Positions 42,701 to 63,999 are shown, numbered from the stretch's first letter. The stretch: 64,000 nt of DNA from Alphaproteobacteria bacterium (GCA_030428405.1 JAUIEH010000001.1:5082-69081); one strand, 5' to 3'. Notes: generated by a model from the letters alone, not told the origin. Numbers and translations: made by a program.

Positions 42701-44908
<2,208 letters not shown>

Positions 44909-44930
44909 GACGCGCTCCCGGCTCACTCGC

Positions 44931-45194
44931 CTAACGACGTGCGAGGCGGTTGAAGACGACCGCGAGAATCGCCGCGAACAGCCATCCAAACGCGATGCTG
45001 CCGACGATGCCCTCGATCCAGCCGAGCGCTGAGGTGACCGGCCGGGCTGTGAACACCTCGACCCATGCATGCGCGACGGGAAAATTCGGAATGAGGAGCT
45101 CGAAGCCGGCGCAGAGAACGAAGGTGACCGCCAGGGCGGCGGACAAGGCCCAGCCAGCGGGCCATAGCGGAATACGAGAAACCGTTTCGGACAT
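44931..45194 (-). CDS. Small membrane protein of 87 aa with 2-3 TM helices, first gene of the copA operon (possibly DUF5676-like)
   Basis: AAGGAGG lies 6 nt upstream of ATG 45194. The protein is hydrophobic. Position is between the CsoR boxes and copA. Confidence 0.6.
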
Positions 45195-45216
45195 CGTTTC
45201 CTCCTTGTAGGGCAAT

Positions 45217-45257
45217 ATACCCCTGTGGGGTATTACATTTATACCCAATGGGGGTAT
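45217..45257. promoter_or_regulatory. Two CsoR-type operators in the divergent csoR / copA-operon promoter region
   Basis: ATACCCC-TGT-GGGGTAT (45217-45233, perfect 7-bp arms) and ATACCC-AATGG-GGGTAT (45241-45257). Known CsoR operators are GC-rich TACCC...GGGTA pseudo-palindromes. Confidence 0.7.
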
Positions 45258-45267
45258 AGTTCAAGGC

Positions 45268-45546
45268 ATGAAGCCTGAAACCCGAAAAGCCGCCCGTGCG
45301 CGCCTCGCCCGCATCGAGGGCCAAGTCCGCGGTCTGATCCGCATGATCGACGATGATCGCTACTGCATCGACGTGATCACCCAGACCCAGGCCGTGCGTG
45401 CAGCGCTCGCGCGCGTCGAATCGCTGGTCTTGAAGGATCATGTCGCCAACTGCGTGGCGGACGCCGTCGCCTCGAACGACGAGGACGAGCGGCGCACGAA
45501 GATCGACGAGCTGATCACGGTCATGGACCAAGCCGTAAGGCGCTGA
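45268..45546 (+). CDS. csoR: CsoR/RcnR-family metal-sensing repressor
   Basis: RLARIEGQVRGLIRMIDDDRYCIDVITQ...LKDHVANC shows the x-C-H-C ligand pattern of Cu(I)-sensing CsoR. Confidence 0.88.
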   Translation: MKPETRKAARARLARIEGQVRGLIRMIDDDRYCIDVITQTQAVRAALARVESLVLKDHVANCVADAVASNDEDERRTKIDELITVMDQAVRR

Positions 45547-45640
45547 GCGGCGTCGGTGCACGGCTTCAATTCTCGTGTCTTCCAGCCCATGCTTTGAATA
45601 CGCGCGGCGGCGCGGGGGCCCTCGCGCATGGTTTCCATAA

Positions 45641-45668
45641 GAGGGGAGGCGGCGATCTCCTGCGTAGT
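45641..45668 (+). promoter_or_regulatory. Island promoter motif, site 3 (anti-sigma/sensor/ECF operon)
   Basis: GAGGGG-N15-GCGTAGT. It ends 38 nt upstream of ATG 45707. Confidence 0.55.
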
Positions 45669-45706
45669 CTCATGTGAGCGATGGCTGGAGGTCTCGGAAT
45701 AGAACG

Positions 45707-46015
45707 ATGACGAAGAACCTGGACGAATTGGCGCGCGCGCTCAGAGACGCGCCTCCTGATCGCGACTTGAGCGCCATTGAGCCGCTGGTGTGGCGCCGCC
45801 TGGATGATGAAAGATCGTGGGCGTTTTTCGGCTCGGCGATCTCATCCGCAATGTCGGTTCGAGCCTTCCAGTCGGCGCTAAGCGCAATCGTATTGTTTTC
45901 GGGCGTGCTCGCAGGCGCAGCCCTGCAAAGCAGCGCAGTGTCCGAGCCGGACGCTTTCGCGGTCTTCCCCATTGCATCGCCGCTGGCGCCGTCGACCTTG
46001 CTCGAACGATCATGA
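45707..46015 (+). CDS. Small single-TM anti-sigma factor (CnrY-like by position and size)
   Basis: 102 aa with one TM helix (ALSAIVLFSGVLAGAAL). ATGA overlap with the next gene. It is the first gene of a Y-X-H type operon. Confidence 0.55.
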   Translation: MTKNLDELARALRDAPPDRDLSAIEPLVWRRLDDERSWAFFGSAISSAMSVRAFQSALSAIVLFSGVLAGAALQSSAVSEPDAFAVFPIASPLAPSTLLERS

Positions 46016-46491
46016 CCGCCGCTGAGATCGCGTCGCGCACAATCCGCACGCGACTGCTTCGCAACATCGTCATCATGGCGCTTGTCGCATTCATCGCCGG
46101 AGCCGCGGGTGCGGCTCTCGGCGCGACCTTGTTTGCTGCGCCCGGCGATCACGCCTCTTCGGGCATGCACGCGCTTGTTCATGAAGGGCTTGATCTGTCT
46201 GCGGAACAAGAACGCGCGCTTGACGCCATCGAGGAGCGCTTCGCCGCGCGCCGGCGCGAGGTTGAATCCGAGCTTACAGCCGCCAATCGAGCGCTCGCGG
46301 ACGTTATCGCCGAAAACCCGGACTACGCGCCCGAAGTCGGCGACGCGGTGGGGCGCGTCCATCAGGTCATGGGCGAACTGCAGGTCGCTACCGTGCTTCA
46401 CGTCTATGAGATGCGCGCCATCCTGACTGAAGAGCAGGCGGCGCTGTTCGATCAACGCGTCAGCAGGGCCCTGATGGGCGCCGCTGAATGA
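46012..46491 (+). CDS. Periplasmic heavy-metal sensor (CnrX / Spy-CpxP-like, LTxxQ motifs)
   Basis: TM anchor, then HASSGMHALVHEGLDLSAEQERAL...LTEEQAALF. Position is between the anti-sigma and ECF sigma genes. Confidence 0.65.
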   Translation: MTAAEIASRTIRTRLLRNIVIMALVAFIAGAAGAALGATLFAAPGDHASSGMHALVHEGLDLSAEQERALDAIEERFAARRREVESELTAANRALADVIAENPDYAPEVGDAVGRVHQVMGELQVATVLHVYEMRAILTEEQAALFDQRVSRALMGAAE

Positions 46492-46492
46492 C

Positions 46493-47062
46493 GTGACGAA
46501 CGAAGGCGAAAGCGACGCCGATTTAGCAGTGCGTGCGCGCCAAGGAGATGAGCGCGCTTTCACGTCCTTGATGCGCCGGCACAAGGACGCCGTTTATCAG
46601 GTTGCGCGGCGGAATCTCGCCGACTCCGACGAAGCGCTGGACGTCGTTCAAGAAGTCTTTGTCGCGGCTTGGCGCAATATCAAGAAATTCGATCCAGAAC
46701 GGCCGATGGCGGCTTGGCTCTTTCGCATCGCGGTCAATGCTTGTCGCGACCGTCACCGGCGTCGCGCTGTCAGAGCGTTCTTCTTTCGCGCCACGCCGCT
46801 CGATGAGCCCGGCGCGCGAAATGTCGCTGACGTGAACGAGCGCACTGAGGATCGCGTCATGGCGCGTGACGAACTCAGGCGTCTTGCGCACGAGATCGAG
46901 CGTTTACCACAAGGCGCGCGCGAGGCGTTCGTGCTGAACGTGATCGAAGGTCTATCCCAGGGCGAAGCCGCGGACGCTCTCGGCGTCACTGTCAAAGCAG
47001 TGGAGACGCGCGTGGCTCGCGCACGGCGATTGCTGGCCGAGCGCCTCGATATCGACGAATAG
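46493..47062 (+). CDS. ECF-type RNA polymerase sigma-70 factor (CnrH-like position)
   Basis: Region 2 is FTSLMRRHKDAVYQVARRNL...DVVQEVFVAAWRNI. Region 4 is LPQGAREAFVLNVIEGLSQGEAADALGVTVKAVETRVARARRLL. Start codon is GTG. Confidence 0.88.
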   Translation: MTNEGESDADLAVRARQGDERAFTSLMRRHKDAVYQVARRNLADSDEALDVVQEVFVAAWRNIKKFDPERPMAAWLFRIAVNACRDRHRRRAVRAFFFRATPLDEPGARNVADVNERTEDRVMARDELRRLAHEIERLPQGAREAFVLNVIEGLSQGEAADALGVTVKAVETRVARARRLLAERLDIDE

Positions 47063-47077
47063 GCTGCCGCTTCCGAT

Positions 47078-48019
47078 CTAGCTCGCGAAATCGAGTTCCG
47101 GCGCCGCATCGGAGCGACAGGCCCGCTCCACCTGCAAGGTCGAAAACACGAAACCATAGCGCAGGCGTAGCAAATCATGCGCGCTCCCCAGGACCGCTTC
47201 ATGCTCTGCGTTCTCGGTTATGCGAATGTGGGCGGAAAAGAGATTGCGTCCGCTTGTCAGCGCCCAGGCGTGAACGTGATGGATGTCCTCGACGCCGTCC
47301 AGCGAAAGAAGCGCCTCACGCACGGCAACCACGTCGACGCCCGTAGGCACGGTCTCCATGAGGATGCGCAGCGCGTCTCGGCAGATCGTCCACGACGCCC
47401 AAAACAACACGAACCCGAATCCGATGCCGAGAATCGGATCGATCGGTGTCCAGCCGGTCAGCCAGATCACGGCGGCGGCGATGATGATGATTAGGCTGCC
47501 GACAAATGTCTGAATGACGTGCCAGAATGCGCCGCGCATATTGAGGTTCTCGCGCTGGCTGGCGAACAGCAGTCGGATCGAAATCAGCTCGGTGACGAGA
47601 CCGCCGAGGGCGGTCAACACCATGGGCAGAGGCGGCAGTTCGACTGGATGGCGCAACCGCATTGCGCCCATGACGATGACGACGACGGCCATCGCGAATA
47701 GGAACAACCCGTTGATGAGGGCGCCGATGATTTCGGCGCGGTAGGAGCCGAACGTGCGATAGCGATCGGAAGGTCGCTCGGCGAGTTTCCCCGCGACAAG
47801 CGCGATCAGCACGCCGCCGACCGCGGAGAACGTGTGAAAGGCGTCAGATATGACCGCGATCGAGCCGATCCAAACGCCAACGATGAGCTCGATCAAGAAA
47901 TAGACGCCCGTCAGCCAGGACGTCCAAATGAGCGCCCTGCGATTGGCGCGCAGCATGGCGGACATGTCGTGCCCGCCGTGGCTCGTCCGGCCGCCGGTCT
48001 GTTCGTGCGCGCCGCTCAC
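47078..48019 (-). CDS. czcD: Cation diffusion facilitator transporter (CzcD/ZitB-like)
   Basis: Six TM helices with SDAFHTFS and a C-terminal cytoplasmic domain (VEDIHHVHAWALTSG). The GTG start overlaps the upstream stop (GTGA). Confidence 0.88.
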   Translation of the reverse strand: MSGAHEQTGGRTSHGGHDMSAMLRANRRALIWTSWLTGVYFLIELIVGVWIGSIAVISDAFHTFSAVGGVLIALVAGKLAERPSDRYRTFGSYRAEIIGALINGLFLFAMAVVVIVMGAMRLRHPVELPPLPMVLTALGGLVTELISIRLLFASQRENLNMRGAFWHVIQTFVGSLIIIIAAAVIWLTGWTPIDPILGIGFGFVLFWASWTICRDALRILMETVPTGVDVVAVREALLSLDGVEDIHHVHAWALTSGRNLFSAHIRITENAEHEAVLGSAHDLLRLRYGFVFSTLQVERACRSDAAPELDFAS

Positions 48020-48477
48020 GACGTCTGGAGATGGCAGATCTTCCAGCCTTCGGCGGTCTCTTCAAACACGGCTGTTCCGCGGCCCTCACGTTCATAGGGC
48101 TCGCCATCCAGAGTGCCGGTGATCGCGAATTCGAAAAGCGCGTAGCCGAGATCAGTTCCCTCGTAAGGACGCACGTCGGAGATCTGATAGTCCTCGATGT
48201 GAAAGCGCTCGCTTTCGAACTCGGGCGTGAGGTGGTCCTCACGGTATTCCGTCCACGACCAATTCGCACCGCGGCCTTCTATGATCGTGAAACGCGTGTG
48301 CCCGAGCGTTTCGGCTTCCATGGCGTCGAGGTCTTCGTTGCGGATGGCCTCCGCGTAGCGCTCCAGCACGGCCGCGTAAGGGTGGGCCGGCTCGGGCTCT
48401 TGCGCGGTCGCGCAGCCTGACGCGAGTACGGCTGCGAACAAAGGCGCCGCTAGAACGCGCTGTAACGTTGCAATCAT
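48016..48477 (-). CDS. NTF2-like (SnoaL/DUF4440-type) lipoprotein
   Basis: Lipobox LASGCA. LERYAEAIRNEDLDAMEA...GRGTAVFEETAEGWKICHLQTS is the typical NTF2-fold pattern. GGGGAGGAA lies upstream of ATG 48477. Confidence 0.6.
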   Translation of the reverse strand: MIATLQRVLAAPLFAAVLASGCATAQEPEPAHPYAAVLERYAEAIRNEDLDAMEAETLGHTRFTIIEGRGANWSWTEYREDHLTPEFESERFHIEDYQISDVRPYEGTDLGYALFEFAITGTLDGEPYEREGRGTAVFEETAEGWKICHLQTS

Positions 48478-48516
48478 CGTATTCCTCCCCTTGCGAGCGC
48501 CGATTGGCCTGTAGTG

Positions 48517-48543
48517 GTTACGCAGGGCGGCGCACGAGCCCTC
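48517..48543 (-). promoter_or_regulatory. Island promoter motif, site 4 (NTF2-like lipoprotein / czcD operon)
   Basis: Minus strand reads GAGGGC-N14-GCGTAAC. It ends 39 nt upstream of ATG 48477. Confidence 0.5.
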
Positions 48544-48560
48544 GCGCTGAACGCGCCTTG

Positions 48561-48587
48561 AAGGGGAGGCCGCTTGAGCTGCGTAGT
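48561..48587 (+). promoter_or_regulatory. Island promoter motif, site 5 (copCD)
   Basis: AAGGGG-N14-GCGTAGT. It ends 36 nt upstream of ATG 48624. The longer string GGGGAGGC...CTGCGTAGTC is shared with site 3. Confidence 0.55.
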
Positions 48588-48623
48588 CGCTATGCGGTCT
48601 AGTGGCCTTCGGAGGATACTCGC

Positions 48624-49007
48624 ATGAAGATGCTTCGCGCTTTGGTGATCTCCGCGCTTGCCGCTCCCGGCCTTTTCTCCGGCGGGCCGGCTTTGGCGCA
48701 TGCGCGCCTTGAGGATGCAACCATCGCTGACGGAGCCGAAATTGCCGAGCTTCCGGCCGAATGCGTCTTTCATTTCTCTACGCCAGTGGCGCTTGCGCGT
48801 GTGACGCTCGAAAACGCGAGTGGTGAGAACATACCCTTGGATTTCACGCCGGCGCGCCAGGAAGCCGCCTCCCACGCCGTCAGCCTGCCAGCCATTGCGC
48901 CCGGCTCCTACACGCTGATCCTGCGGGCGATGTCTGACGACGGCCACGTCATGGCGAATTCCATCTCTTTCACACTGATAGAGCAGGACGAGGCCGAGAG
49001 CCGCTGA
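48624..49007 (+). CDS. copC: CopC-domain periplasmic copper-binding protein
   Basis: Signal peptide ending ALAHA, so the mature N-terminus is HARLEDATIADG, the characteristic CopC N-terminal His. Confidence 0.85.
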   Translation: MKMLRALVISALAAPGLFSGGPALAHARLEDATIADGAEIAELPAECVFHFSTPVALARVTLENASGENIPLDFTPARQEAASHAVSLPAIAPGSYTLILRAMSDDGHVMANSISFTLIEQDEAESR

Positions 49008-49027
49008 ACGCTTGACGGACCGCGCCT

Positions 49028-49867
49028 GTGATCGGCGTTTTCGCAAAGCTCGCCATTTACGCCGCTGTGCTTGGCGCTGCGGGCTTTTCGTTCGCAGCCT
49101 TGGGCGTGACGACGGCTCCGCAGAGCGTTCGCCGATATCTGGGCGCTGCATCGCTTCTATCGATCGTCGCCGCTGCGACCGCCGGCCTTCGCATTCTGCT
49201 CGACGCCGTCCGGCTCGCGGGCGACTGGGCGGCGGTGGGTGAGCCGCCTTATCTTAGTTGGGCGTTCGATGCGCAATCCGGCTTCATCGCGGCTTTCGCG
49301 CCGGGCGCGATCATTCTTTTCACCGCCGGTCTTGCTCGTTGGCGCGTGGCGGCCGCCATCGGCGGCGCTGTGATGCTCGCGAGTTTCGCTGCGACCGGGC
49401 ATGCAAGCGCAGACGGCGCGCCCTGGCCGGCGCGCGCTGCACTGGTCGTCCATTTGTGGGGCGTCGCGTTTTGGGTGGCCGCGCCGATTGTGCTTTGGCC
49501 CGCTGCCTGGACTGATCACGCCGAGCTGCTCGACAGAATGAAGAGGTTCAGCCGCATCGCGACCTTGATCGTTCCGGCTTCGCTCGCCGCAGGCGCGGTT
49601 TTGGTCGTCACTCTTCTGCCGCAACTGACGAACCTCGTGACGACGACCTATGGCAGGCTGATTGCGCTGAAAGTCGTGCTCGCGGCGTCCGCGTTCGGGC
49701 TCGGCGCTATCAACAAGGTTTGGGTGACGCAGAGACTTGAGATAAATCCCGTTCACGGACGAAGGCTGCTCAAACTCACTTTGTCGGCGGACGCCATCCT
49801 GTTCGCCGTCGCGCTCACCGCCGTGGCGGCGGCGACGACACTGACGGGCCCGACAGAGGAACTCTAG
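49028..49867 (+). CDS. copD: CopD-family inner-membrane copper resistance protein
   Basis: Eight TM helices. It lies immediately downstream of copC. Start codon is GTG. Confidence 0.8.
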   Translation: MIGVFAKLAIYAAVLGAAGFSFAALGVTTAPQSVRRYLGAASLLSIVAAATAGLRILLDAVRLAGDWAAVGEPPYLSWAFDAQSGFIAAFAPGAIILFTAGLARWRVAAAIGGAVMLASFAATGHASADGAPWPARAALVVHLWGVAFWVAAPIVLWPAAWTDHAELLDRMKRFSRIATLIVPASLAAGAVLVVTLLPQLTNLVTTTYGRLIALKVVLAASAFGLGAINKVWVTQRLEINPVHGRRLLKLTLSADAILFAVALTAVAAATTLTGPTEEL

Positions 49868-49900
49868 CCGGGCCCGTCGCGCGCCTAAGAGTGGCGGTTC

Positions 49901-50281
49901 TTAGTCTTCGTCGCTGTGTCCCTGCATCTCCATCATCATTTCGTGCTGGGACATCATCTGCATCATCATTTGATGCATGTTCGACATGTGCTCGTGCATC
50001 CGCTCCATCGAGGCGCCGTCATCATCGGCCATCATCCCATGTCCGCCCATCATGCCCTCGGAGGCGTGCATCTGCTCGCGCATCAAGGCCATGTGCTCGT
50101 GCATGAGCGCGCGGCGTTCCGCGGCGTCATCCGCCGATGCGAACGCTTCACGCATCTCCTCCATGCGCTCGAACCGGTCACCGCCGCCGTGCTCATGGGC
50201 TGGGTCCTGGGCGAAGGCTGTCGTCGTGGCGCACGCCGAAAGGCCGAAGGCCGCCGCGACGATGATTGGCTTCAACAACAT
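49901..50281 (-). CDS. Met/His-rich periplasmic lipoprotein (probable Cu(I)/Ag(I) binder)
   Basis: Signal/lipobox FGLSAC, then MHEHMALMREQMHASEGMMGGHGMMADDDGASMERMHEHMSNMHQMMMQMMSQHEMMMEMQGH. Confidence 0.75.
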   Translation of the reverse strand: MLLKPIIVAAAFGLSACATTTAFAQDPAHEHGGGDRFERMEEMREAFASADDAAERRALMHEHMALMREQMHASEGMMGGHGMMADDDGASMERMHEHMSNMHQMMMQMMSQHEMMMEMQGHSDED

Positions 50282-50368
50282 CTGTTTGCTCCCTCGTGAT
50301 GTGCGAGCTTGCGTCACAGGGCGCGGATGAGATCCTCGCCAATCTGCGTGACCACCAGCTCTTGTTGG

Positions 50369-50395
50369 GATACGCAGCCGCGCGACCGCCCCCTC
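50369..50395 (-). promoter_or_regulatory. Island promoter motif, site 6 (Met/His-rich protein gene)
   Basis: Minus strand reads GAGGGG-N14-GCGTATC. It ends 87 nt upstream of ATG 50281, or 51 nt from the alternative start at 50317. Confidence 0.45.
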
Positions 50396-50514
50396 GGAAA
50401 AAGCGGGCGAAGGAGAGGAGATTGGGTGACGAATGCTCCACGGTTCAGCGTCGATCCGTCCTCACGCCGATACAGAGATTGCAGTGCGGTCAGAGTACGG
50501 ACGAATGCGTCTGA

Positions 50515-51261
50515 TTAACGGTGTGCCTTCGCGAAGCTCGCCAAACGCAGCACGACCAGCCCGACGCCGGCCAAGGCGAACAGAACCGCCAGCGACGCCG
50601 TCATCTTGATCCACCACGAATTGAAGTTCTCGCGGCTCGACCAATCCATAATGTGCAGGCCCCACATAAAATCGAACGTGCGCCACAAACCCGTTCGAAC
50701 CGCGCGCACGTCGCCGGTCGAAGCGTCGACATAGAAGCTGGCCGCGTCCGGGCGATCGAAGTCGACGCGCCATGCGGGCCCGGGGCGTCCATATTCGCGC
50801 GGCGGGTCGTCGAAGAACGTCGCCGTCCCTATCGCGCCGTCGCCGCGATAGTTCGATTGCGCGAGGCGACGCGCCCAGTCTTCGGACAATGGCGTGATGA
50901 GTTCGCCCGACGTCGCGTCGATCATGACGGTCGCATCGTCTGCGCTGACCCGCCATACGGCCGTCTCGTCCAGCATCATCGCCGACGCAGTGCTCGCAGA
51001 CACGCCGGAGGTCTCAATCGCTTCCGCTAACTCGACATGGTCGGGCGCCCACGCGAGCGTTGGCGGCTCGTGCTCGGTACGGAGATGCTCGCCACGAACC
51101 TGTTCGATCGGGAACCACGTCATGAACAATCCCGTCGCCAGCCAGATGACGACCTGCGCGCCGATTGCGAGGCCGAGCCAAAGGTGAAGCTGACGAAGGC
51201 GACGGTTGAATAGGGCTCGGGTCACTCGGCGGCTCTCTGCGAAAGATCTGTCCGTGCTCAT
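50515..51261 (-). CDS. PepSY-domain / PepSY-associated TM protein
   Basis: FNRRLRQLHLWLGLAIGAQVVIWLATGLFMTW...FMWGLHIMDW is the typical PepSY_TM pattern. Confidence 0.75.
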   Translation of the reverse strand: MSTDRSFAESRRVTRALFNRRLRQLHLWLGLAIGAQVVIWLATGLFMTWFPIEQVRGEHLRTEHEPPTLAWAPDHVELAEAIETSGVSASTASAMMLDETAVWRVSADDATVMIDATSGELITPLSEDWARRLAQSNYRGDGAIGTATFFDDPPREYGRPGPAWRVDFDRPDAASFYVDASTGDVRAVRTGLWRTFDFMWGLHIMDWSSRENFNSWWIKMTASLAVLFALAGVGLVVLRLASFAKAHR

Positions 51262-51294
51262 CGGACGGCGTGCGCATATCATACGAACATTGGA

Positions 51295-51321
51295 ATTACG
51301 CGCGAGGTCTCCTAGCCCCTC
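51295..51321 (-). promoter_or_regulatory. Island promoter motif, site 7 (PepSY gene)
   Basis: Minus strand reads GAGGGG-N14-GCGTAAT. It ends 33 nt upstream of ATG 51261. Confidence 0.5.
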
Positions 51322-51603
51322 GATCGCGAACCGCTGAGATACGATTCCTGTTTCTTCAACGCGGAGCTAGCGGCGATAGAATGCGAGGCGTGATCAGCGC
51401 ATGCCAATCGTTCCGATCGCGGCGCCTGGCTGGACGATGCCAGCCAGGCTACCACCTCCTTCGAAGCGGCAGGATTTCGTGAGTGATGACCAACCAGCTC
51501 ATTCACGCCGGCCGACCAAACTCAACCGGGCCCTTCATCGTGGTCTCGGCTCACCTCGCACTTGCCAACGCCCAGCTTCGCTCGCCGCCTCATTCACGCT
51601 TCA

Positions 51604-56126
<4,523 letters not shown>

Positions 56127-56132
56127 TTTGGA

Positions 56133-57461
56133 TCACTCCTCTCCGGGCAGCGGGGCCGCGAAGCGTGCAGTCAGCCGATCGTGGGTGGCATCGGTGCGGT
56201 GATAATTGGCGAGCGTTTCGACGAGCTGTTCGCGTGCGTCGTGCAGCGCTCTTTGCGCGACGATCACTTCGAGCGAGGAAAACGCGCCGCGCTGATAGGC
56301 GTCACGCGCCTGGGCGAGCGCGCGTTGCGCTTGCGGAATAATGCTGTCGCGCAGCGCGTCGATCTGCGTGATAGCGGTCGCTCGCTCGCGTTCGAGACGA
56401 ACCGTCTCCCGCAAGAATGCACGGCGCAAAGAAGCCGCTTCATAGGCCAGTCGTGATCGATCGGATCGGGCGGATGCGATGGCTCCCCGATTGCGATCGA
56501 AGATCCCAAGAGGAATGGAGATTTCCGCCACTAGAGCGACATCGCCGCCGTCGGCGAAATGGCGAACGCCGACGCCGGCGTCCAGGTCTTGAACGCCACG
56601 TGCGATCTCCAATTCGACCTCAGCGTCCGAGCGGCTCTGTTCTGCTGTAATCCGCGCGAGGTCTGGAGAACGTTCGACGTCGATCGCAGTCGGTTCTCGC
56701 GCATGCGCGCCTGGTTCGTAGAACGCTTCAAGATCGACGACGAAGTCCGCGGCAGACGCGTCCCAAAAGCTGGCGAGACGCTCCAGCGTAGTTTCCTCGG
56801 CGCTTCGCGCGGTCGCCAGTTCGGCGCGCGCGGAAGCGAGCTCAAGCTCTGCTCGTGTCAACGCGACAGCGGGGTCCAAGGCCGAATTGACGCGCTGAGA
56901 GACCGACGCCCGCACCTCTTCCGCGATGCTGAGGAGCTCTTCGGCGAGATCGCGCTGCGCCATCGCGGCCGCCGCGTCGACATAAGCGACTTGAACATCG
57001 CGCAAGAGGTCGAGGCGGCGCAAGACGGCGTCACTACGCGTGATCGCCAATGCGCCTTCCGCCACGCTTGTGCGTGCACGGCGATCGCCGCCACGCTCGA
57101 ACGTGTGCACATAGGTCGCCGTGGTCTCGGCGCTGTCGACGCCCGAGAGGGGCCCTGTGCCGAGAGCGTTCTCCACCTCGACGGAGAGCGCCGGATTGGG
57201 ACGCACCGAGGCTTGATCGACGCCCGCTCGGGCGGCGTCGATTGCAGCAGCGGCGGCGGCGAGGCCGGGTTCGGCGCGGCTCGCGCGCGCCAAGGCTTCC
57301 TCAAGCGTCACGATCTGTTGCGCCGCTGCGCTTTGCGACACGAGCGCCGCTGCGCCGACAATCAGCCCGGCGACGCCATAGCGAAGTTTTCGGGCTCGAA
57401 TGAGCGCGATTTCGGCGACACCCTCATGCAAGGGTTCCGGCCGGCGATGTGGGATGCACAC
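56133..57461 (-). CDS. czcC: TolC-family outer-membrane factor (CzcC-like)
   Basis: Typical outer-membrane-factor repeats. I prefer GTG 57461, which has AGGAGG 5 nt upstream, over the TTG at 57485 used by the track. Confidence 0.85.
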   Translation of the reverse strand: MCIPHRRPEPLHEGVAEIALIRARKLRYGVAGLIVGAAALVSQSAAAQQIVTLEEALARASRAEPGLAAAAAAIDAARAGVDQASVRPNPALSVEVENALGTGPLSGVDSAETTATYVHTFERGGDRRARTSVAEGALAITRSDAVLRRLDLLRDVQVAYVDAAAAMAQRDLAEELLSIAEEVRASVSQRVNSALDPAVALTRAELELASARAELATARSAEETTLERLASFWDASAADFVVDLEAFYEPGAHAREPTAIDVERSPDLARITAEQSRSDAEVELEIARGVQDLDAGVGVRHFADGGDVALVAEISIPLGIFDRNRGAIASARSDRSRLAYEAASLRRAFLRETVRLERERATAITQIDALRDSIIPQAQRALAQARDAYQRGAFSSLEVIVAQRALHDAREQLVETLANYHRTDATHDRLTARFAAPLPGEE

Positions 57462-57521
57462 GCTTACCTCCTGCGAAGACGACAAGACACAAAGCGCGCT
57501 TAGGAGCGCGGAATGCTGTCG

Positions 57522-57863
57522 TCAGGCGCGTGGAGGTCGGAAGACGCCGCCGAGGAGGCGTCCAATCGCATTGTCGTCGATGACCGGCGCGTTTTGGCGG
57601 GGGGCGGTTTTGGCGCTCAGGACCGGCGGTGTCGTGCCGCCGAGGACATGGAAGTGGCAGCCGCCGCAGCCATGCGCGACATGCAAAGCGTGATCGGCGT
57701 CGATCGGGCCGTCATCAACGGCGACGATTTGTCCGTGCTCACACGGATTGGTGTGCGCGCCATTGGCCGCATGCGCTGGCGCAAACACGCTAGCGAGCGC
57801 CCAAAAGGCGATCAGCAGGGCATGAACTACCGCGCGGCGTGGATTATTCAGCGAGCGCATCAC
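57522..57863 (-). CDS. Secreted 113-aa His/Cys-containing protein upstream of czcC (CzcI-like position; identity uncertain)
   Basis: Signal peptide ending PAHA, then NPCEHGQ...ADHALHVAHGCGGCHFH. Confidence 0.45.
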   Translation of the reverse strand: MMRSLNNPRRAVVHALLIAFWALASVFAPAHAANGAHTNPCEHGQIVAVDDGPIDADHALHVAHGCGGCHFHVLGGTTPPVLSAKTAPRQNAPVIDDNAIGRLLGGVFRPPRA

Positions 57864-58512
57864 AGACCGACTTTTCGTCCCCGTCTTCTTTATGCGAGGT
57901 AAACGACCGGCGCTCAGCGAGCGCCTGGGTAATGATAAGCCATGAGGACCGGAGGAACAAGCCGGCCAGCGCTATCGCTACAATCAAGTCCGGCCAGGCG
58001 GTTCCGGAAGCCCAAACAGCCGCGCCCGCGCCCATGACCGCGACATTTCCGATCGCGTCATTGCGCGAGCAAAGCCAAACAGATCGTACGTTCGCGTCGC
58101 CGTTTCTCCATCGAATGAGGATCAGCACGCTCGCCAGATTGGCGGTCAGAGCAAGCGCGCCGATCGCGCCCATCACCGAGGCGTCAGGCGGCGCGCCGTT
58201 CAAGACGCGGGCGAACGTCGAAATCAGCACGTAGGACGCGACGAGCGCTAGCGATGCGCCTTTTATGAGGGCTGCTGTCGCGCGCACCCGGATCGATGAC
58301 CCGATGACCGCCAGGCTGATCGCGTAAGTCGCGGTGTCGCTCGCGAAATCAAGCGCATCAGCTTTCAGTGCTTGTGACTGAGCGAGAAATCCCGCTGCGA
58401 TTTCGACGAAAAACATCGCCGCATTGATGCCGATGACGGCAACCAATGCGCGCCGATAGGCGTTGGAGACGCCGGAGAATTGCTGAGCTGCGACTTCACA
58501 TTCACATGACAT
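57844..58512 (-). CDS. Short cation-diffusion-facilitator-like transporter (TM domain only)
   Basis: MSCECEV...INAAMFFVEIAAGFLAQSQALKADALDFASDT and six TM helices, with no C-terminal cytoplasmic domain. It lies downstream of a MerR-type promoter. Confidence 0.75.
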   Translation of the reverse strand: MSCECEVAAQQFSGVSNAYRRALVAVIGINAAMFFVEIAAGFLAQSQALKADALDFASDTATYAISLAVIGSSIRVRATAALIKGASLALVASYVLISTFARVLNGAPPDASVMGAIGALALTANLASVLILIRWRNGDANVRSVWLCSRNDAIGNVAVMGAGAAVWASGTAWPDLIVAIALAGLFLRSSWLIITQALAERRSFTSHKEDGDEKSVCDALAE

Positions 58513-58544
58513 AGCGCGAGCGGTCCAAGGGCTGATCGAAAAGC

Positions 58545-58575
58545 CGCTTAGCACCTACAGCCGCTGTAGAAGCAA
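58545..58575 (-). promoter_or_regulatory. MerR-type promoter M1 (drives the short CDF gene)
   Basis: Minus strand reads TTGCTT-(19 nt: CTACAGCGGCTGTAGGTGC)-TAAGCG. The dyad CTACAG-N3-CTGTAG lies at 58555-58569. Confidence 0.55.
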
Positions 58576-58629: not shown

Positions 58630-59091
58630 CTACGTCGCCGTCGCGATCGTGCCTCCGCCGGCATGCCCGTGGTCGTCATGCAGACATTGGCCGTGATCGG
58701 CCAGCGCGCTCATGACGGCGCATGATCCGACTCTGCCGCCGGCGCAGGCGCTGATCATTCGCTCGAGTTCTCTTTCTAGCGCCTTCAACTGCTCAAGCCG
58801 CTCACGCACGTCGGCGAGTCGCTTGCGCGCCACGGCATCGACGCTGTCGCAATCCCTTCCAGGATCAATTTGAAGCGCGATTAGCTCGCGGATGGTCTCG
58901 ACGGGAAAGCCCAGCGCGCGGGCGTGACGTATGAATGCGAGTCTTGCCTGGGCGTCCGCGTCATAGACGCGCTGCCCGCTTGTCGTACGCTCCGGCGGCG
59001 GCATCAGACCTATGGTCTCGTAGTATCGGATCGTCGTCACCTTAACGCCCGTCGCGCGCGACAGGACGCCGATCGTTCGCCGCTTCGTCAC
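58630..59091 (-). CDS. MerR-family metal-responsive regulator (CadR/PbrR/ZntR-like)
   Basis: N-terminal HTH is IGVLSRATGVKVTTIRYYETIGLMPPPERTTSGQRVY. It has a dimerisation helix and a Cys/His-rich C-terminus, CAGGRVGSCAVMSALADHGQCLHDDHGH. Confidence 0.88.
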   Translation of the reverse strand: MTKRRTIGVLSRATGVKVTTIRYYETIGLMPPPERTTSGQRVYDADAQARLAFIRHARALGFPVETIRELIALQIDPGRDCDSVDAVARKRLADVRERLEQLKALERELERMISACAGGRVGSCAVMSALADHGQCLHDDHGHAGGGTIATAT

Positions 59092-59106: not shown

Positions 59107-59137
59107 TTGCCTCTACAGCGACTGTAGAGTTTATGCA
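59107..59137 (+). promoter_or_regulatory. MerR-type promoter M2 (divergent from merR-like 58630..59091; drives the ICMT-like gene)
   Basis: TTGCCT-(19 nt: CTACAGCGACTGTAGAGTT)-TATGCA. The extended dyad CTCTACAG-CGA-CTGTAGAG lies at 59111-59129. Confidence 0.6.
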
Positions 59138-59159
59138 CGCACCGTCAAAGCGGAGATGC

Positions 59160-59729
59160 ATGATGAAACAGGCGCTCTTGATCTATGTTGCGGTGAATGC
59201 GGTGTTGTCGATCTTCATGGCGCGGTTCGTCATCCGCGACTTTCAGCGGATAAGGCGCGTCTCCGTTCCCGTAGCTATCTGGACCGGCGTCGCGATGCAT
59301 GGGCACGCTCTGGCGACCTTCGCGATGGCCTGGATCGATCGCGGCTCTCTCTATGCGCTGAGCTATTGGACGGCTGCGGGCGGCGGACTTGTCCTTGTCA
59401 TCGGTGCTTACATTATTTTTCTCGGCCGAAGCGCTTATGGTGATCGCGCACGCGTTTATGGCCTCAAGGAAGACGAGTTGATCGATCGCGGCGTATATCG
59501 CTGGTCGCGAAACCCGCAATATTTCGGCTACTGGCTCATGTTCGTCGGCGCCGGCTTGGCCAGCGGTTCTTGGCTGACGCTGGCGTTCGCGGCCGCGTTT
59601 GCTGTCTTCATCGATGTCTACATTCGCGTAGTAGAGGAGCCTCATCTCAAACGCGTCTTTGGTGAAGCGTATAGCGCCTATCGTCAGCGCGTGAGCCGCT
59701 ATTGGTCGCTGCCTCGATCGTCTGACTGA
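59160..59729 (+). CDS. Isoprenylcysteine carboxyl methyltransferase (ICMT/PEMT)-family membrane protein (CzcN/NccN-like)
   Basis: LIDRGVYRWSRNPQYFGYWLMFVGAGL...EEPHLKRVFGEAYSAYRQRV is the ICMT-family signature. GGAG lies upstream of ATG 59160/59163. Confidence 0.8.
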   Translation: MMKQALLIYVAVNAVLSIFMARFVIRDFQRIRRVSVPVAIWTGVAMHGHALATFAMAWIDRGSLYALSYWTAAGGGLVLVIGAYIIFLGRSAYGDRARVYGLKEDELIDRGVYRWSRNPQYFGYWLMFVGAGLASGSWLTLAFAAAFAVFIDVYIRVVEEPHLKRVFGEAYSAYRQRVSRYWSLPRSSD

Positions 59730-61019: not shown

Positions 61020-61487
61020 TCAGCCGGCGTTCGACGCTTCACGCTCTCCGGCAATGCGCGCTTCCACCCAATCGATCGGCGTGAAAACGATGCAAACGAG
61101 ATGCGTATAGCGCCCGAAGATCAGCGAGGGGATCGCCATCACCTCGCACCCCCCGTCCGATCGCGCCGCGACGATGGCGAGTGATATCCCGATATAGGCG
61201 AACGCCGCCATCGTGCCGGCGCCGCCGCCCAAGATTGCGACACATATGACAGGGATGACCGCCAACAATGCGCCGATCCAGGGATTGAGCCGACGCGCAA
61301 ATCTAGCGATCAGCAGATGCAACACAGAATAGACCGCCGTCAGTGCTGCGAACCATGCGCCGGACGTAAGAAGCGTCGTCGCGTCTGCTGCGACCGCTTG
61401 AATTGCTGCTACGTAGATCAGCGCCGCCGCCAAGGCCGCGCGAAGCAGCCGCCCGACGGTCCGTGCACGCAGGATGGCGCCGTCCAT
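61020..61487 (-). CDS. Uncharacterised 4-TM membrane protein with a GCE...C...ID-W-E motif (paralog of 63442..63999)
   Basis: The C-terminus DGGCEVMAIPSLIFGRYTHLVCIVFTPIDWVE aligns with PGCEMRAFHHLFSIVTGRPTHEHHCPVGPLSAIDRWE in the other copy. AAGGAG lies 7 nt upstream of the ATG. Confidence 0.65.
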   Translation of the reverse strand: MDGAILRARTVGRLLRAALAAALIYVAAIQAVAADATTLLTSGAWFAALTAVYSVLHLLIARFARRLNPWIGALLAVIPVICVAILGGGAGTMAAFAYIGISLAIVAARSDGGCEVMAIPSLIFGRYTHLVCIVFTPIDWVEARIAGEREASNAG

Positions 61488-61515
61488 TTAAAGTCTCCTT
61501 CCAGCCATTCGCGCA

Positions 61516-61546
61516 AGCCTCGCACCTGGAGCCACTACAGGATCAA
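61516..61546 (-). promoter_or_regulatory. MerR-type promoter M4 (degenerate dyad; upstream of 61020..61487)
   Basis: Minus strand reads TTGATC-(19 nt: CTGTAGTGGCTCCAGGTGC)-GAGGCT. On the + strand, 61521-61547 shares 20/27 identical positions with the M1 region. Confidence 0.35.
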
Positions 61547-61686
61547 GCCCGCGCCCCACATCTGATCACGCGTCTTTGATAGCGCAGCGGGTTGATGAGA
61601 GTGCGGGAGCCCTGAGATGCCGTTGCTCCTGTACCCGCTCCAGCATCCAAGCTACTCGAACTGCACCGCCTCAGCGGATCGAACGG

Positions 61687-62082
61687 ATGAGTGAAAAACC
61701 GAACGCGCCGGGTCCGGCCGACCGCGCCGCAGCAGCAGCGACCGGCGGAGCCGTGGGTGTCAGCGCGATCGCCTCGTTCATCGGGCTCTGCTGCATCGGT
61801 CCCTGGGCCGTGGCGCTGTTTGGGGTGCCTGGCGCCGTCGCGCTGGCTCGCTTTCAGCCTCTGCGGCCTTACCTGCTCGCCTTGGGCGGGGCGCTTTTGA
61901 TCTGGGTGTTTTGGCGCGTTTACCGGCCCCGGCGGGCGAGCGCACCGGCATGTGATGTGAAACGGCGCAGCATTTGGCTGCAGGCCGTACTTTGGGCCTC
62001 CACGGCATTGTTCGTTGCTGCACTGTTCGCAGACCAGCTGCAGTGGCTACTCGTTGATCCGACGCCGGATGGTTTGAGATAA
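61687..62082 (+). CDS. MerT-like metal (mercuric-ion) transporter membrane protein
   Basis: The first TM helix carries vicinal cysteines (FIGLCCIGPWAV), as in MerT/MerC-type transporters. It has three TM helices. I prefer ATG 61687. Confidence 0.55.
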   Translation: MSEKPNAPGPADRAAAAATGGAVGVSAIASFIGLCCIGPWAVALFGVPGAVALARFQPLRPYLLALGGALLIWVFWRVYRPRRASAPACDVKRRSIWLQAVLWASTALFVAALFADQLQWLLVDPTPDGLR

Positions 62083-62134
62083 TGCATGCGCGTCGCCCGC
62101 CGTCGCAGCGGGCGACCGAAATCGCGAGCTGCGT

Positions 62135-62518
62135 TCAATGCGCGAGCGCGTCGAGGATCGGACATTCGCCGCCGCCGCTCTCACACGCCTCGACCAGCTG
62201 AGCCAGGTTGCGGCGCAACCGCCGTAGGTCTGCGAGCTTTTCTTGAACCTGCGCGAGGTGTTTTTGAGCCAATTCGCGAGTTTCGTCACAATCGCCGCCG
62301 CCGGCGTCCAGCGCGATCAGGCGCCGCACATCCTCGATCGAAAAGCCAAGCTCGCGGGCGCGTCTGATGAAGCGCAGTCGCCGTATGTCGTCTTGAGCAA
62401 AAAGCCGCCGCCCGCTCTGCGATCGGGGGGGCGGCGGCACGAGGCCGATGCGCTCATAATAGCGGATCGTTTCGATATTCACGCGCGTCTTCTCGCTCAC
62501 GGCGCCGATGGGCAGCAT
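62135..62518 (-). CDS. MerR-family metal-responsive regulator
   Basis: IGAVSEKTRVNIETIRYYERIGLVPPPPRSQSGRRLF, plus a Cys at GGGDCDE and the loop ACESGGGECPIL. I prefer ATG 62518 and reject the long N-terminal extension in the track. Confidence 0.88.
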   Translation of the reverse strand: MLPIGAVSEKTRVNIETIRYYERIGLVPPPPRSQSGRRLFAQDDIRRLRFIRRARELGFSIEDVRRLIALDAGGGDCDETRELAQKHLAQVQEKLADLRRLRRNLAQLVEACESGGGECPILDALAH

Positions 62519-62535
62519 CGTAACTCCTAAAGTGC

Positions 62536-62566
62536 TTGCTTCTGTAGCTGCTACAGGATGCAGGAT
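62536..62566 (+). promoter_or_regulatory. MerR-type promoter M3 (divergent from merR-like 62135..62518; drives the thioredoxin-fold lipoprotein operon)
   Basis: TTGCTT-(19 nt: CTGTAGCTGCTACAGGATG)-CAGGAT. The dyad CTGTAG-CTG-CTACAG lies at 62542-62556. The -10 is weak and overlaps the first ATG (62565). Confidence 0.5.
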
Positions 62567-63197
62567 GCCCGCGATGAGGTCCGATGCGAAGACAATCTTG
62601 CGTGATCCGCTGCGCGTCACAGCCGCGTTGGCGGTGAGCGCCGGACTCCTTGGCTGCGACGCCGGCGAGGGCGCATCGGCCAACGCCGACATCACCCGAA
62701 ACGAGCTGATGCTGGCGAGCGAAGACCTCGCCGAAATCCGCGCGGACTTCAACGCCGCCGCAGGCGATCTTCGGCTGGTGTTTCTTATCGGGCCGAGCTG
62801 CGGTCCGTGCCTGCTCGGGCTTAATGAGATCAACCGCGTGCTCGGTGACGAGATACGCGCGAACGACAGACTGCATGCGTATGTGATCTACGTCCCGACC
62901 TTGTCGGCGCAGAGACATCACGCCGAGCGGGCGATGCGCCTGCTGCCCGGCGAGGGCGTGCGCCACTATTGGGACGAGACGGGAAACTCAGGCGTCGAGT
63001 TTCAAGAAGCGCTTAGTCTCCAGGTCTACGCCTGGGACATGTACATGATTTTTGAGCCGGCCTCATTGTGGGACGGGGATGCGCCGCCGGCGCCGGCGCT
63101 GATGCGTCATCAGCTGCAGGGCTTGCCGCGTGAGACGCGCTTCGACGCCGACGACTTCGCCGAAGAGGTCCGGCGCCGATTGGAGGAGCTCACATGA
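62565..63197 (+). CDS. Thioredoxin-fold lipoprotein with a CGPC active-site motif
   Basis: Lipobox LLGCD. RLVFLIGPSCGPCLLGLNEINRVL is a beta1-CxxC-alpha1 thioredoxin signature. An alternative start lies at 62574. Confidence 0.7.
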   Translation: MPAMRSDAKTILRDPLRVTAALAVSAGLLGCDAGEGASANADITRNELMLASEDLAEIRADFNAAAGDLRLVFLIGPSCGPCLLGLNEINRVLGDEIRANDRLHAYVIYVPTLSAQRHHAERAMRLLPGEGVRHYWDETGNSGVEFQEALSLQVYAWDMYMIFEPASLWDGDAPPAPALMRHQLQGLPRETRFDADDFAEEVRRRLEELT

Positions 63198-63376
63198 CCG
63201 ATCCCATTCGCATGGACGGCGTATTCAGGTTCGACGAGGCGGGAACACTGCCGCGTCCTGGCCCCATCGGCCGCATGGTCCGCATCGCGTTCGGCGCTGC
63301 CTGCCTCTATCTCGTTTGGCAGGTTGCGCCGGTCAGCGATCCATGCACGCGAGGCGATTGTTCAACACGGCCATAG
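63194..63376 (+). pseudogene. Truncated N-terminal fragment of the GCE-motif membrane protein family
   Basis: LPRPGPIGRMVRIAFGAACLYLVWQV aligns with LTKPGPIGRVVRLGFGLASLYYVYSL of 63442..63999. The fragment stops after 60 aa and lacks the Cys-motif C-terminus. It has an ATGA overlap with the upstream gene. Confidence 0.55.
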
Positions 63377-63441
63377 TACGGATCGGCGCGAGCTTTGCTG
63401 CGAATTGAAAGAACTCAGTAGAATAGGAAAAAGTACAGCAA

Positions 63442-63999
63442 ATGGCGACGACAGACCTAAAACTTGAGCAACCCGGCAGCCTGACCAAGCCAGGCCCCAT
63501 CGGCCGGGTTGTCCGCCTCGGCTTTGGGTTGGCGTCTCTCTACTACGTGTACAGCCTATGGGGCGTACGGAGTGATCTGATCGCGGGCGATGACTCCGTG
63601 CGATCACTCCTGTGGAACGGGATTTTGCCAGGGCTGTTTCTGGTGAGCTACGTCGTCAATATCGGCTATTCGCGAGATTGGAAAAAATGGCCCGCCGCTA
63701 TCAGCGCGGGTCTTTTGCTCGCCGCCGCCGGGATCGGCTATGTGCGCGCCGGCGTGCTGGAAACGCCTCTTCTTGCGAGCACGATATTGTGGTGGGAACT
63801 CTATATCTTTGCGCATCTTGGTTTGTGTTTTGTCTTATCCGCTGTGCTGGCGACGCCGGGCTGCGAGATGCGCGCATTCCACCACCTATTTTCAATCGTT
63901 ACCGGTCGACCTACCCACGAGCATCACTGCCCCGTTGGGCCGCTCAGCGCTATTGATCGCTGGGAGACGCATCTCACCGGTCGCGCCGACGATGAATGA
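63442..63999 (+). CDS. Uncharacterised 4-TM membrane protein with a GCE...HHC...ID-W-E motif (paralog of 61020..61487)
   Basis: The track ORF is complete, with its stop at 63997-63999. It has hydrophobic helices and the motif PGCEMRAFHHLFSIVTGRPTHEHHCPVGPLSAIDRWE. Confidence 0.7.
   Translation: MATTDLKLEQPGSLTKPGPIGRVVRLGFGLASLYYVYSLWGVRSDLIAGDDSVRSLLWNGILPGLFLVSYVVNIGYSRDWKKWPAAISAGLLLAAAGIGYVRAGVLETPLLASTILWWELYIFAHLGLCFVLSAVLATPGCEMRAFHHLFSIVTGRPTHEHHCPVGPLSAIDRWETHLTGRADDE

Follow-up and report, generated by a model that had tools for sequence, protein, structure and literature searches.

Introduction

Mercury resistance is among the best-understood bacterial metal systems. The mer operon of Tn21/Tn501 has the gene order merR, merT merP (merC) merA merD merE, and a 2021 survey gives MerR, D, T, P, C, E, F, G, A and B as accepted mer genes (PMC8261052). 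The present study deals with a 64,000-nt stretch of DNA from an alphaproteobacterial genome (GCA_030428405.1, JAUIEH010000001.1:5082-69081; hereafter the window) and in particular with a gene at its end encoding a small membrane protein, X, which is none of the proteins on that list. An X-type gene is not named in the mer surveys searched, and no paper on the X family was found in the literature searched. Mercury resistance may be well understood, yet X, whose family comprises over 1,000 proteins, is unnamed, has no profile model and matches no solved fold; at the same time, genuine mer operons of marine Alpha- and Gammaproteobacteria end with its gene.

In the window X lies behind the gene of a lipoprotein with a CGPC active site (the CGPC protein), close to a MerR regulator, a MerT-like transporter and a second membrane protein with the same Gly-Cys-Glu (GCE) motif (copy 1). 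An earlier reading of this DNA, made from the sequence alone (the sequence-only reading), had proposed here a thiol-based module handling metals or metalloids. Our analysis supports a module that handles metal through Cys residues under the control of a MerR-type sensor and identifies the region as a rearranged, reductase-less derivative of a mer locus within a heavy-metal resistance island. We interpret it as a mercury-responsive thiol relay that works without a reductase, and we assign this interpretation a probability of about 0.5.

Results and Discussion

Scanning a genome collection for X yielded 77 loci, the neighbourhoods of which were searched by tblastn with mer proteins within 6 kb. 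The loci belong to marine Alphaproteobacteria (Kordiimonas, Parvularculaceae, Marinicaulis, Hyphococcus, Robiginitomaculum), to Gammaproteobacteria (mainly Woeseiaceae) and, in one case, to a member of the Pirellulaceae. MerR adjoins X in 62 of the 77 loci, MerT in 49, MerP in 40, MerA in 30 and a homologue of the CGPC protein in 12. X is located directly 3' of merA in 20 loci, directly 3' of merP in nine and after a CxxC lipoprotein gene in 12. In seven gammaproteobacterial loci (L037, L041, L046, L047, L049, L053, L067) it shares the strand of merR and comes right after it, with merT-merP-merA running divergently. In all three X relatives inspected merR is divergent from merT-merP-merA-X (in one case with merC too) and the surrounding DNA is integrative or conjugative; the closest X relative (79% identity) likewise comes with merR and merT-merP-merA-X. 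The MerAs adjoining X are genuine, ending in SCCAG and reaching 537-554 bits on TIGR02053, for which the cut-off is 454. X-family genes regularly form part of genuine merR-merTPA-X operons, whose operator they share, and X is very probably a mercury-regulated accessory membrane protein of mer systems. The sequence-only reading could not connect the membrane family with a named function. There is indeed no such name, nor a Pfam or NCBIfam model, but the family is by no means an orphan.

The NmerA domain is missing in 25 of the 29 neighbouring MerAs, including all 20 that lie directly ahead of X. A role of X solely as NmerA substitute is not supported by our data: four NmerA-bearing MerAs have X nearby, and X is common in loci without MerA. 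Most MerAs before X (L020-L045, e.g. L024 4557-5981) start with a short vicinal-Cys tail (MSDCCP..., ...ESGCCTSE...). Many alphaproteobacterial mer operons encode a glutathione-reductase-like flavoprotein disulfide reductase (453 aa) directly after X (L024 6539-7900; also L020, L021, L032-L034, L129, L130); this protein lacks a C-terminal CC pair, its redox motif is CALRGC, and it reaches 311 bits, under the cut-off, on the NCBIfam model for glutathione-disulfide reductase.

Two MerR-type promoters are present in the window. The promoter towards the CGPC gene, already recognised in the sequence-only reading, reads TTGCTT-CTGTAGCTGCTACAG-GATG-CAGGAT, with a 19-nt spacer and a perfect dyad. The second one, which that reading had missed, points towards copy 1 on the minus strand and reads TTGATC-CTGTAGTGGCTCCAG-GTGC-GAGGCT; its dyad has one mismatch, and about 29 nt separate this promoter from the copy-1 start codon. 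The dyad CTGTAG-N3-CTACAG, allowing up to one mismatch, occurs at exactly two sites in the 64 kb (62542 and 61526; none expected from 100 shuffles), both of them in fitting intergenic regions, i.e. before the genes from CGPC to X and before copy 1 and the alpha/beta hydrolase gene that follows it. Given the minus-strand site, copy 1 and the hydrolase form a second MerR-type unit. The promoter pattern TTGAxx-CTGTAG-N3-CTACAG was found in 52 of the 77 X loci, always in promoter position. Dyad-bearing X operons include canonical merTPA-X, merTP-X and merT-like-CxxC-X arrangements, and in three loci the dyad lies 63-127 nt upstream of X itself. The same promoter architecture and dyad precede merT-merP-merA-X (L001, L020, L024) and the merT-like-CxxC operons of L179 and L180.

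The window MerR is recognised by Pfam, and its best NCBIfam match is the mercury MerR model TIGR02051, with 125.4 bits at an equivalog cut-off of 150.85. The models for ZntR, CueR and CadR reach 95-105 bits, and this score pattern could be taken to mean that it is not mercury but a different thiophilic metal (Cd, Pb, Zn, Au) to which sensor and module respond; the Czc-type, cation diffusion facilitator (CDF) and P1B-ATPase genes of the island and the missing MerA would fit as well. Against such a specificity, the MerRs of genuine merTPA-X operons score no better on the mercury model (112-120 bits, below the window MerR). The window MerR is 45-49% identical to the MerRs of genuine merTPA(B) operons, the operator dyad is identical, and the X family is tied to MerA, MerT and MerP instead of other metal systems. 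We consider another metal very improbable. The Cys triad of the MerR is conserved: C77, C112 and C119 align with Cys in 68-72 of the 72 X-locus MerRs. As X is regular in genuine mer operons and the operator is shared, the open list of metals and metalloids in that reading narrows to Hg(II) as the most likely one, and by its sequence relations the window MerR would have Hg(II) as its effector.

A search of 5.8 billion proteins returned at least 1,194 relatives of X. The 120 relatives listed show 58-79% identity, are all called "hypothetical protein" where a source name is given, and carry no precomputed Pfam domain. X has all 47 family-invariant positions, including the GRxxR, NIGxSRxWKKWP, TPGCEMR and EHxCPxGxLxxxDxWE motifs. 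Profile searches at E<=0.1 assigned X, copy 1 and the CGPC protein to no Pfam or NCBIfam family. Both membrane protein families are sparse and patchy: in a 400-genome sample across the phylum X was not found and the copy-1 profile had no match beyond the source genome, and X had no match among 72,556 PLSDB plasmids.

That the two GCE proteins are paralogous was confirmed by BLASTP (24% identity, E 4e-6) and by profile-profile comparison over the full length (probability 97.3%, E 1.7e-11). In an alignment of 65 sequences of the superfamily, G21, R22, R25, G140-C141-E142 and D172 are invariant, and T158 and E175 nearly so. Of the C-terminal motif the two proteins had been said to share, G-C-E and D172 hold throughout, whereas conservation of the second Cys, C163 in X, is complete in the X family and incomplete in the copy-1 family. 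The latter is smaller and more diverse (266 representative clusters). DUF6410 (PF19948) is matched by 15 of 24 of its members (best E 2.4e-12) over the N-terminal part of the model, which covers the last transmembrane helix, the GCE motif and the next motif; longer relatives possess the remainder of the domain, and copy 1 and X of the window show no match to it even at E<=10. Judged from these alignments, copy 1 is a distant homologue of X that is related to DUF6410. Its link to mercury is limited to the window and a few loci (L024, L032, L130, L139). MerR, MerT-P or MerA adjoin copy-1 genes in only few of 80 metagenome loci, in which a two-component system (10), GDCCVxC proteins (6) and tandem X-like paralogues (8) are found as neighbours. 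A similar hydrolase gene lies directly downstream of copy-1-family genes in three loci (L102, L113, L124), and a hydrolase homologue is also present in the syntenic island L179.

The AlphaFold model of X (mean predicted local distance difference test, pLDDT, 88.9; predicted template modelling score, pTM, 0.82) shows four long helices and a C-terminal region with two short helices. A fold search against the PDB gave no match (best E 0.7, template modelling scores 0.2-0.3). Lys and Arg counts throughout the family point to a cytoplasmic position of the N-terminus, loop 2 (YSRDWKK) and the C-terminal Cys/His region. Cys141 stands at the end of transmembrane helix 4 (TM4) and His161-His162-Cys163 in the tail; following the positive-inside rule, Cys141, His161/162 and Cys163 are predicted to lie at the inner membrane face. 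With these Cys facing the cytoplasm, a relay would have to run from the periplasmic CxxC via the CC pair of the MerT-like protein to X. The direct relay from lipoprotein to GCE protein drawn in the sequence-only reading is not supported by our data, and neither is its suggested reduction function by anything tested.

X and copy 1 might also act on their own, as importers of Hg(II) or organomercurials analogous to MerC, MerE, MerF and MerH and redundant with MerT. Small Cys-bearing inner-membrane proteins at the distal end of a mer operon hold the usual place of accessory transporters, and in L039, L056 and L089 X stands alone behind a MerR-type promoter. However, X and copy 1 show no sequence relation to the MerC, MerE, MerF and MerT models, none of which they matched. 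No vicinal Cys or CxxC pair exists in a transmembrane helix of X, whose conserved Cys lie at or beyond the cytoplasmic end of TM4, and X mostly accompanies MerT (49 of 77 loci) instead of replacing it. Autonomous import is in our view distinctly unlikely.

The CGPC protein has the lipobox LLGC with Asp at position +2 and the active site C76-G-P-C79. Both Cys and the VPT loop are kept in its 25 detectable relatives. In its AlphaFold model (pLDDT 87.6, above 95 in the mature domain) a strand at 66-72 is followed by C76-x-x-C79 and a helix at 77-96, and Foldseek matches the model to DsbE/CcmG, ResA, TlpA, StoA and Sco with probability 1.0 and E 3e-4 to 7e-3. The thioredoxin fold claimed for this lipoprotein is thereby confirmed at the level of the model, and the protein is predicted to belong to the TlpA/CcmG/Sco class. 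In all 12 genome loci and in L179, L180 and L182 a CGPC homologue is encoded directly 3' of a MerT-like gene in an operon without MerP, which makes the CxxC gene a positional replacement for merP.

The fold itself allows another view, in which the module moves reducing equivalents: the lipoprotein would repair or protect mercury-damaged periplasmic thiols and would be kept reduced via membrane proteins, as by CcdA/DsbD in the case of TlpA, ResA and CcmG. Its best structural matches are reducing thiol:disulfide oxidoreductases (CcmG/DsbE, ResA, TlpA, StoA), and CGPC is the active site of thioredoxin. Sco-type metal chaperones fit the fold equally well, though, and the gene partner is MerT-like, not CcdA/DsbD. 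Most X operons are also without a CxxC protein, and the Cys of X face only the cytoplasm, hence X alone could not provide a transmembrane disulfide cascade. There is in our estimate only a slim chance that the module serves this purpose.

The MerT-like protein scores 34.2 bits on Pfam MerT (PF02411, cut-off 32.9) and 30.7 on the NCBIfam MerT model (cut-off 150). It has a vicinal CC in TM1 (GLCCIGP), and its loop ASAPACDVKRR contains one Cys where relatives have C-x4-C. No other MerT-family gene was found in the genome. Close relatives (L051 4249-4638, L180 4627-4998) fall into the same divergent subfamily as the MerT-like genes before CxxC genes. A standard sigma-70 scan found no promoter for the window gene.

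The source genome is a metagenome-assembled genome (MAG) of 610 contigs and 90% completeness. The sequence-only statement that MerA, MerP and MerB are lacking agrees with our searches of this genome. No MerA over the TIGR02053 cut-off was found in the contig or in the MAG (best 345 bits against 454), no MerP over its cut-off (best 24.5 bits against 92.55, on another contig), and no MerB. MerA over cut-off is likewise absent in 10 of 10 other tested genomes with MerA-less X loci, most of which are MAGs, where absence is unproven; that all ten agree still argues for the reductase-less X operon as a maintained state. In the isolate Kordiimonas laminariae 5E331, one of the ten, merR, a merT-like gene, a gene for a GDCCVxC protein and X form the operon in this order (L093 5426-6543), and no MerA over cut-off was found. 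The merT-like protein of this locus has 119 aa with SCC in TM1, the GDCCVxC protein 68 aa (NCBIfam NF041374), and the strain offers a ready experimental system.

How the window came to its present state can be read from the X genes. A maximum-likelihood tree built from 75 X proteins puts the window X in an alphaproteobacterial clade of 25 with good support (99/94), of which 17 members follow merA, among them all seven nearest relatives of the window X; the X genes of CxxC modules all lie outside this clade. The gene relic ahead of X, described in the sequence-only reading as a truncated third copy, does match the N-terminus of X (43% identity over 49 aa, E 6e-13). It is no copy of its neighbour, though, but a relic of another lineage, with 53-60% identity to the X genes of Woeseiaceae merT-like-CxxC-X modules. 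The relic is nearer to the X genes of CxxC modules and the full-length X to those that follow merA, which makes the operon a chimera. By these relationships, only a relic would be left of the original CxxC-coupled X, and the X now standing behind it is of the after-merA type. The MerA-less state of this locus therefore looks secondary. The MerT-like gene is displaced: elsewhere it comes first after the promoter, with the CxxC gene right behind it. A possible merA remnant upstream of X (TDRRELCCEL, resembling the MerA end DVRELSCCAG) was rejected, as blastx against 30 MerAs found nothing there; DNA homology to the closest merA-X locus begins exactly at the X start codon, which also speaks against such a remnant.

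From this history one could conclude that the region is a decaying remnant, i.e. a mer island that lost merT-merP-merA by recombination and left genes without a coherent function here. The full-length X nests among after-merA genes, and a truncated X of another lineage separates it from the CGPC gene. The MerT-like gene, parted from the CxxC gene it always precedes elsewhere, has no MerR-type promoter and is short of one Cys of the loop pair. A related island, L179, syntenic with the window in its hydrolase, second MerR, CDF and PEMT genes, retains merT-merP-merA-merB divergent from the same merR. In contrast, all other open reading frames (ORFs) are intact with every family-invariant residue kept, both promoters have preserved the 19-nt spacing and the dyad, and MerA-less X operons are common, the state being maintained in many lineages as judged from the 10 genomes without MerA. 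A mere remnant appears unlikely to us.

For the mercury-responsive thiol relay we propose the following course. The Hg-type MerR would control two units, one from the CGPC gene via the relic to X and the other comprising copy 1 and the hydrolase. The CxxC protein, tethered to the membrane on the periplasmic side, would capture Hg(II) as a stand-in for MerP; the MerT-like protein would move the ion across the membrane by its vicinal Cys pair, and the cytoplasmic Cys/His site of X (Cys141, His161-His162-Cys163) would receive it. X would then hand Hg(II) on to MerA where this is present, and in the window to cytosolic thiols or other binders.

Several points weigh against this relay. X is without a Cys on the periplasmic side of its transmembrane helices, the MerT-like protein is down to one Cys of its cytoplasmic pair, and no MerR-type promoter could be recognised for its gene in the window. 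The dyad was found upstream of copy-1-family genes in none of 75 other loci, so that MerR control of copy 1 is particular to the window. In the seven loci with X on the same strand after merR, X would come from the merR promoter and not from the Hg-induced one; co-transcription with the regulator instead of the transport genes fits a hand-off role less well. The chimeric operon with its gene relic may be decaying, and with a MAG of 90% completeness the absence of MerA is unproven. Import of Hg(II) without a reductase sensitises E. coli, which makes a pure import relay physiologically puzzling.

A bolder possibility, which we regard as quite unlikely, is that the X family and its MerT-like, CxxC-lipoprotein and GDCCVxC partners are the core of a reductase-independent way of handling mercury. 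The invariant Cys-Glu and Asp site at the inner membrane face, joined in the X family by the second Cys, may then perform chemistry or a directed hand-off and not passive binding. By analogy, such chemistry may be an organomercurial protonolysis like that of the Cys/Asp/Cys site of MerB, or the loading of mercury onto an exported or sequestering thiol. If true, this would explain why MerR-controlled X operons are kept in many marine bacteria without a genomic MerA. In any case, X operons in genomes without a detectable mercuric reductase raise the question what purpose mercury-sensing import without reduction serves, and because both kinds of operon exist in cultured Kordiimonas strains, this question is directly testable; merRTPA-X is carried by K. 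aquimaris JCM 16665 and K. lipolytica CGMCC 1.15304, a MerA-less merR…X by K. laminariae 5E331 and K. lacus S3-22. The answer would also bear on mercury handling in marine sediments and on the annotation of "merA-negative" mer loci in metagenomes.

Locus organisation

The genes, motifs and MerR-type promoter claimed in the sequence-only reading are all present where it had put them (ORF list, sequence). Of its gene bounds, those of MerR and the starts of the MerT-like and lipoprotein genes had to be revised to the positions in Table 1.

Table 1. Features of the proposed mer-derived region at the end of the window.
Feature	Position	Strand	Basis or details
Alpha/beta hydrolase, 412 aa	59772..61010	-	Pfam Abhydrolase_6, Hydrolase_4, Peptidase_S9
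GCE-motif membrane protein copy 1, 155 aa	61020..61487	-	BLASTP and profile-profile homology to X
MerR-type promoter towards copy 1	61516..61546	-	-35 TTGATC, 19-nt spacer, -10 GAGGCT
MerT-like transporter, 131 aa	61687..62082	+	likely ATG at 61687; marginal Pfam MerT
Hg-type MerR regulator, 127 aa	62135..62518	-	NCBIfam TIGR02051; Cys77, Cys112, Cys119
MerR-type promoter towards CGPC gene	62536..62566	+	-35 TTGCTT, 19-nt spacer, -10 CAGGAT
CGPC lipoprotein, predicted thioredoxin fold, membrane-tethered, 207 aa	62574..63197	+	lipobox LLGC; AlphaFold/Foldseek
X-family gene relic, 60-codon ORF	63194..63376	+	N-terminal ~45 residues and TM1 only
X (GCE copy 2), 185 aa, 4 transmembrane helices	63442..63999	+	homology to mer-linked family

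The lipoprotein most likely starts at 62574, directly past the promoter, rather than at 62508. The -10 hexamer ends 7 nt ahead of this ATG, so that the lipoprotein mRNA may be leaderless or nearly so. The start of the X relic overlaps the stop of the CGPC gene (ATGA). The MerT-like gene sits between the two MerR-type units and is convergent with merR. On the minus strand, the hydrolase, which has an N-terminal membrane anchor or signal sequence, follows 9 nt downstream of copy 1, and the two genes are probably co-transcribed.

The cluster of MerR and X lies at the end of a heavy-metal island (window 42701-58554). The island holds genes for a P1B-ATPase with an HMBD domain (42701-45070), a CDF protein (47078-48019), a SnoaL/DUF4440 protein and a PepSY-TM protein. 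These are accompanied by Czc-type genes (51604-57485) for a resistance-nodulation-division (RND) pump, a membrane fusion protein (MFP) and an outer membrane protein (OMP), by a His-rich ORF of 113 aa (57522-57863) and by a short CDF-like gene (57844-58554). A second MerR, of CadR/ZntR type (58630-59091), and a PEMT/ICMT-like methyltransferase (59133-59729) follow. The 12 kb downstream of the window contain ArsR, ACR3, Fic and STAND NTPase genes and no mer genes; just past the window on the same contig, between X and ArsR-ACR3, lies a 217-aa ORF of no Pfam or NCBIfam family (L019 3369-4022, minus strand).

Comparison with known systems

With the mer operon of Tn21/Tn501 the window shares a three-Cys Hg-type MerR, a divergent MerR-type promoter with 19-nt spacer and dyad operator, and a MerT-like transporter with vicinal Cys in TM1, beside which a periplasmic CxxC protein is encoded in related loci. 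Unlike that operon, the window is without MerA, MerP, MerD and MerE, its periplasmic CxxC protein has a predicted thioredoxin fold and not an HMA fold, the operator half-sites are CTGTAG/CTACAG versus TCCGTAC/GTACGGA, and X, copy 1 and the hydrolase are added under MerR-type promoters.

X resembles MerC, MerE, MerF and MerH in being a small Cys-bearing inner-membrane protein of mer operons. It differs from all of them in having no detectable similarity, no Cys pair in a transmembrane helix, a predicted cytoplasmic Cys/His site and a fold without match (best E 0.7). DUF6410 proteins have an extra C-terminal part (model ~90-189) that copy 1 and X of the window lack; the function of DUF6410 is not known, and neither DUF6410 nor GDCCVxC proteins are mentioned in the literature searched. 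The CGPC protein has no match to a thioredoxin-like Pfam or NCBIfam model, and its partner is MerT-like in place of CcdA/DsbD or cytochrome-maturation genes; with TlpA, CcmG (DsbE), ResA and Sco it has in common the predicted fold, a CxxC starting helix 1, the Pro of the VPT loop and a periplasmic membrane tether.

Among the closest known systems are the merR-merT-merP-merA-X operons of marine Alphaproteobacteria (Kordiimonas, Parvularculaceae, Marinicaulis, Hyphococcus; L001, L020-L036, L184), with 61-79% identity in X, the same dyad and 45-49% identity in MerR. There, MerT, MerP and an NmerA-less MerA come before X, whereas the window X stands behind the CxxC gene and the relic, and no MerA was found in the genome. 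The merT-like-CxxC-X modules of Woeseiaceae (L048, L051, L069 and others) and the operons of L179 and L180 have the MerT-like gene first behind the promoter; in the window this gene lies out of place and converges with merR. The CxxC lipoproteins of Woeseiaceae (CGIC motif; L051 4617-5996 and others) are longer than the window protein by an additional C-terminal domain of about 250 residues. In L179 (5608-5994 and 5964-6452, paralogous to each other) and L180 (5611-6396), small membrane proteins with a C...N..RC.R.HC motif replace X after the CxxC gene; they have no Pfam or NCBIfam family and are another unstudied Cys-rich family in MerR-controlled modules. What these operons and the window have in common are the three structural families and the lack of MerA in the operon.

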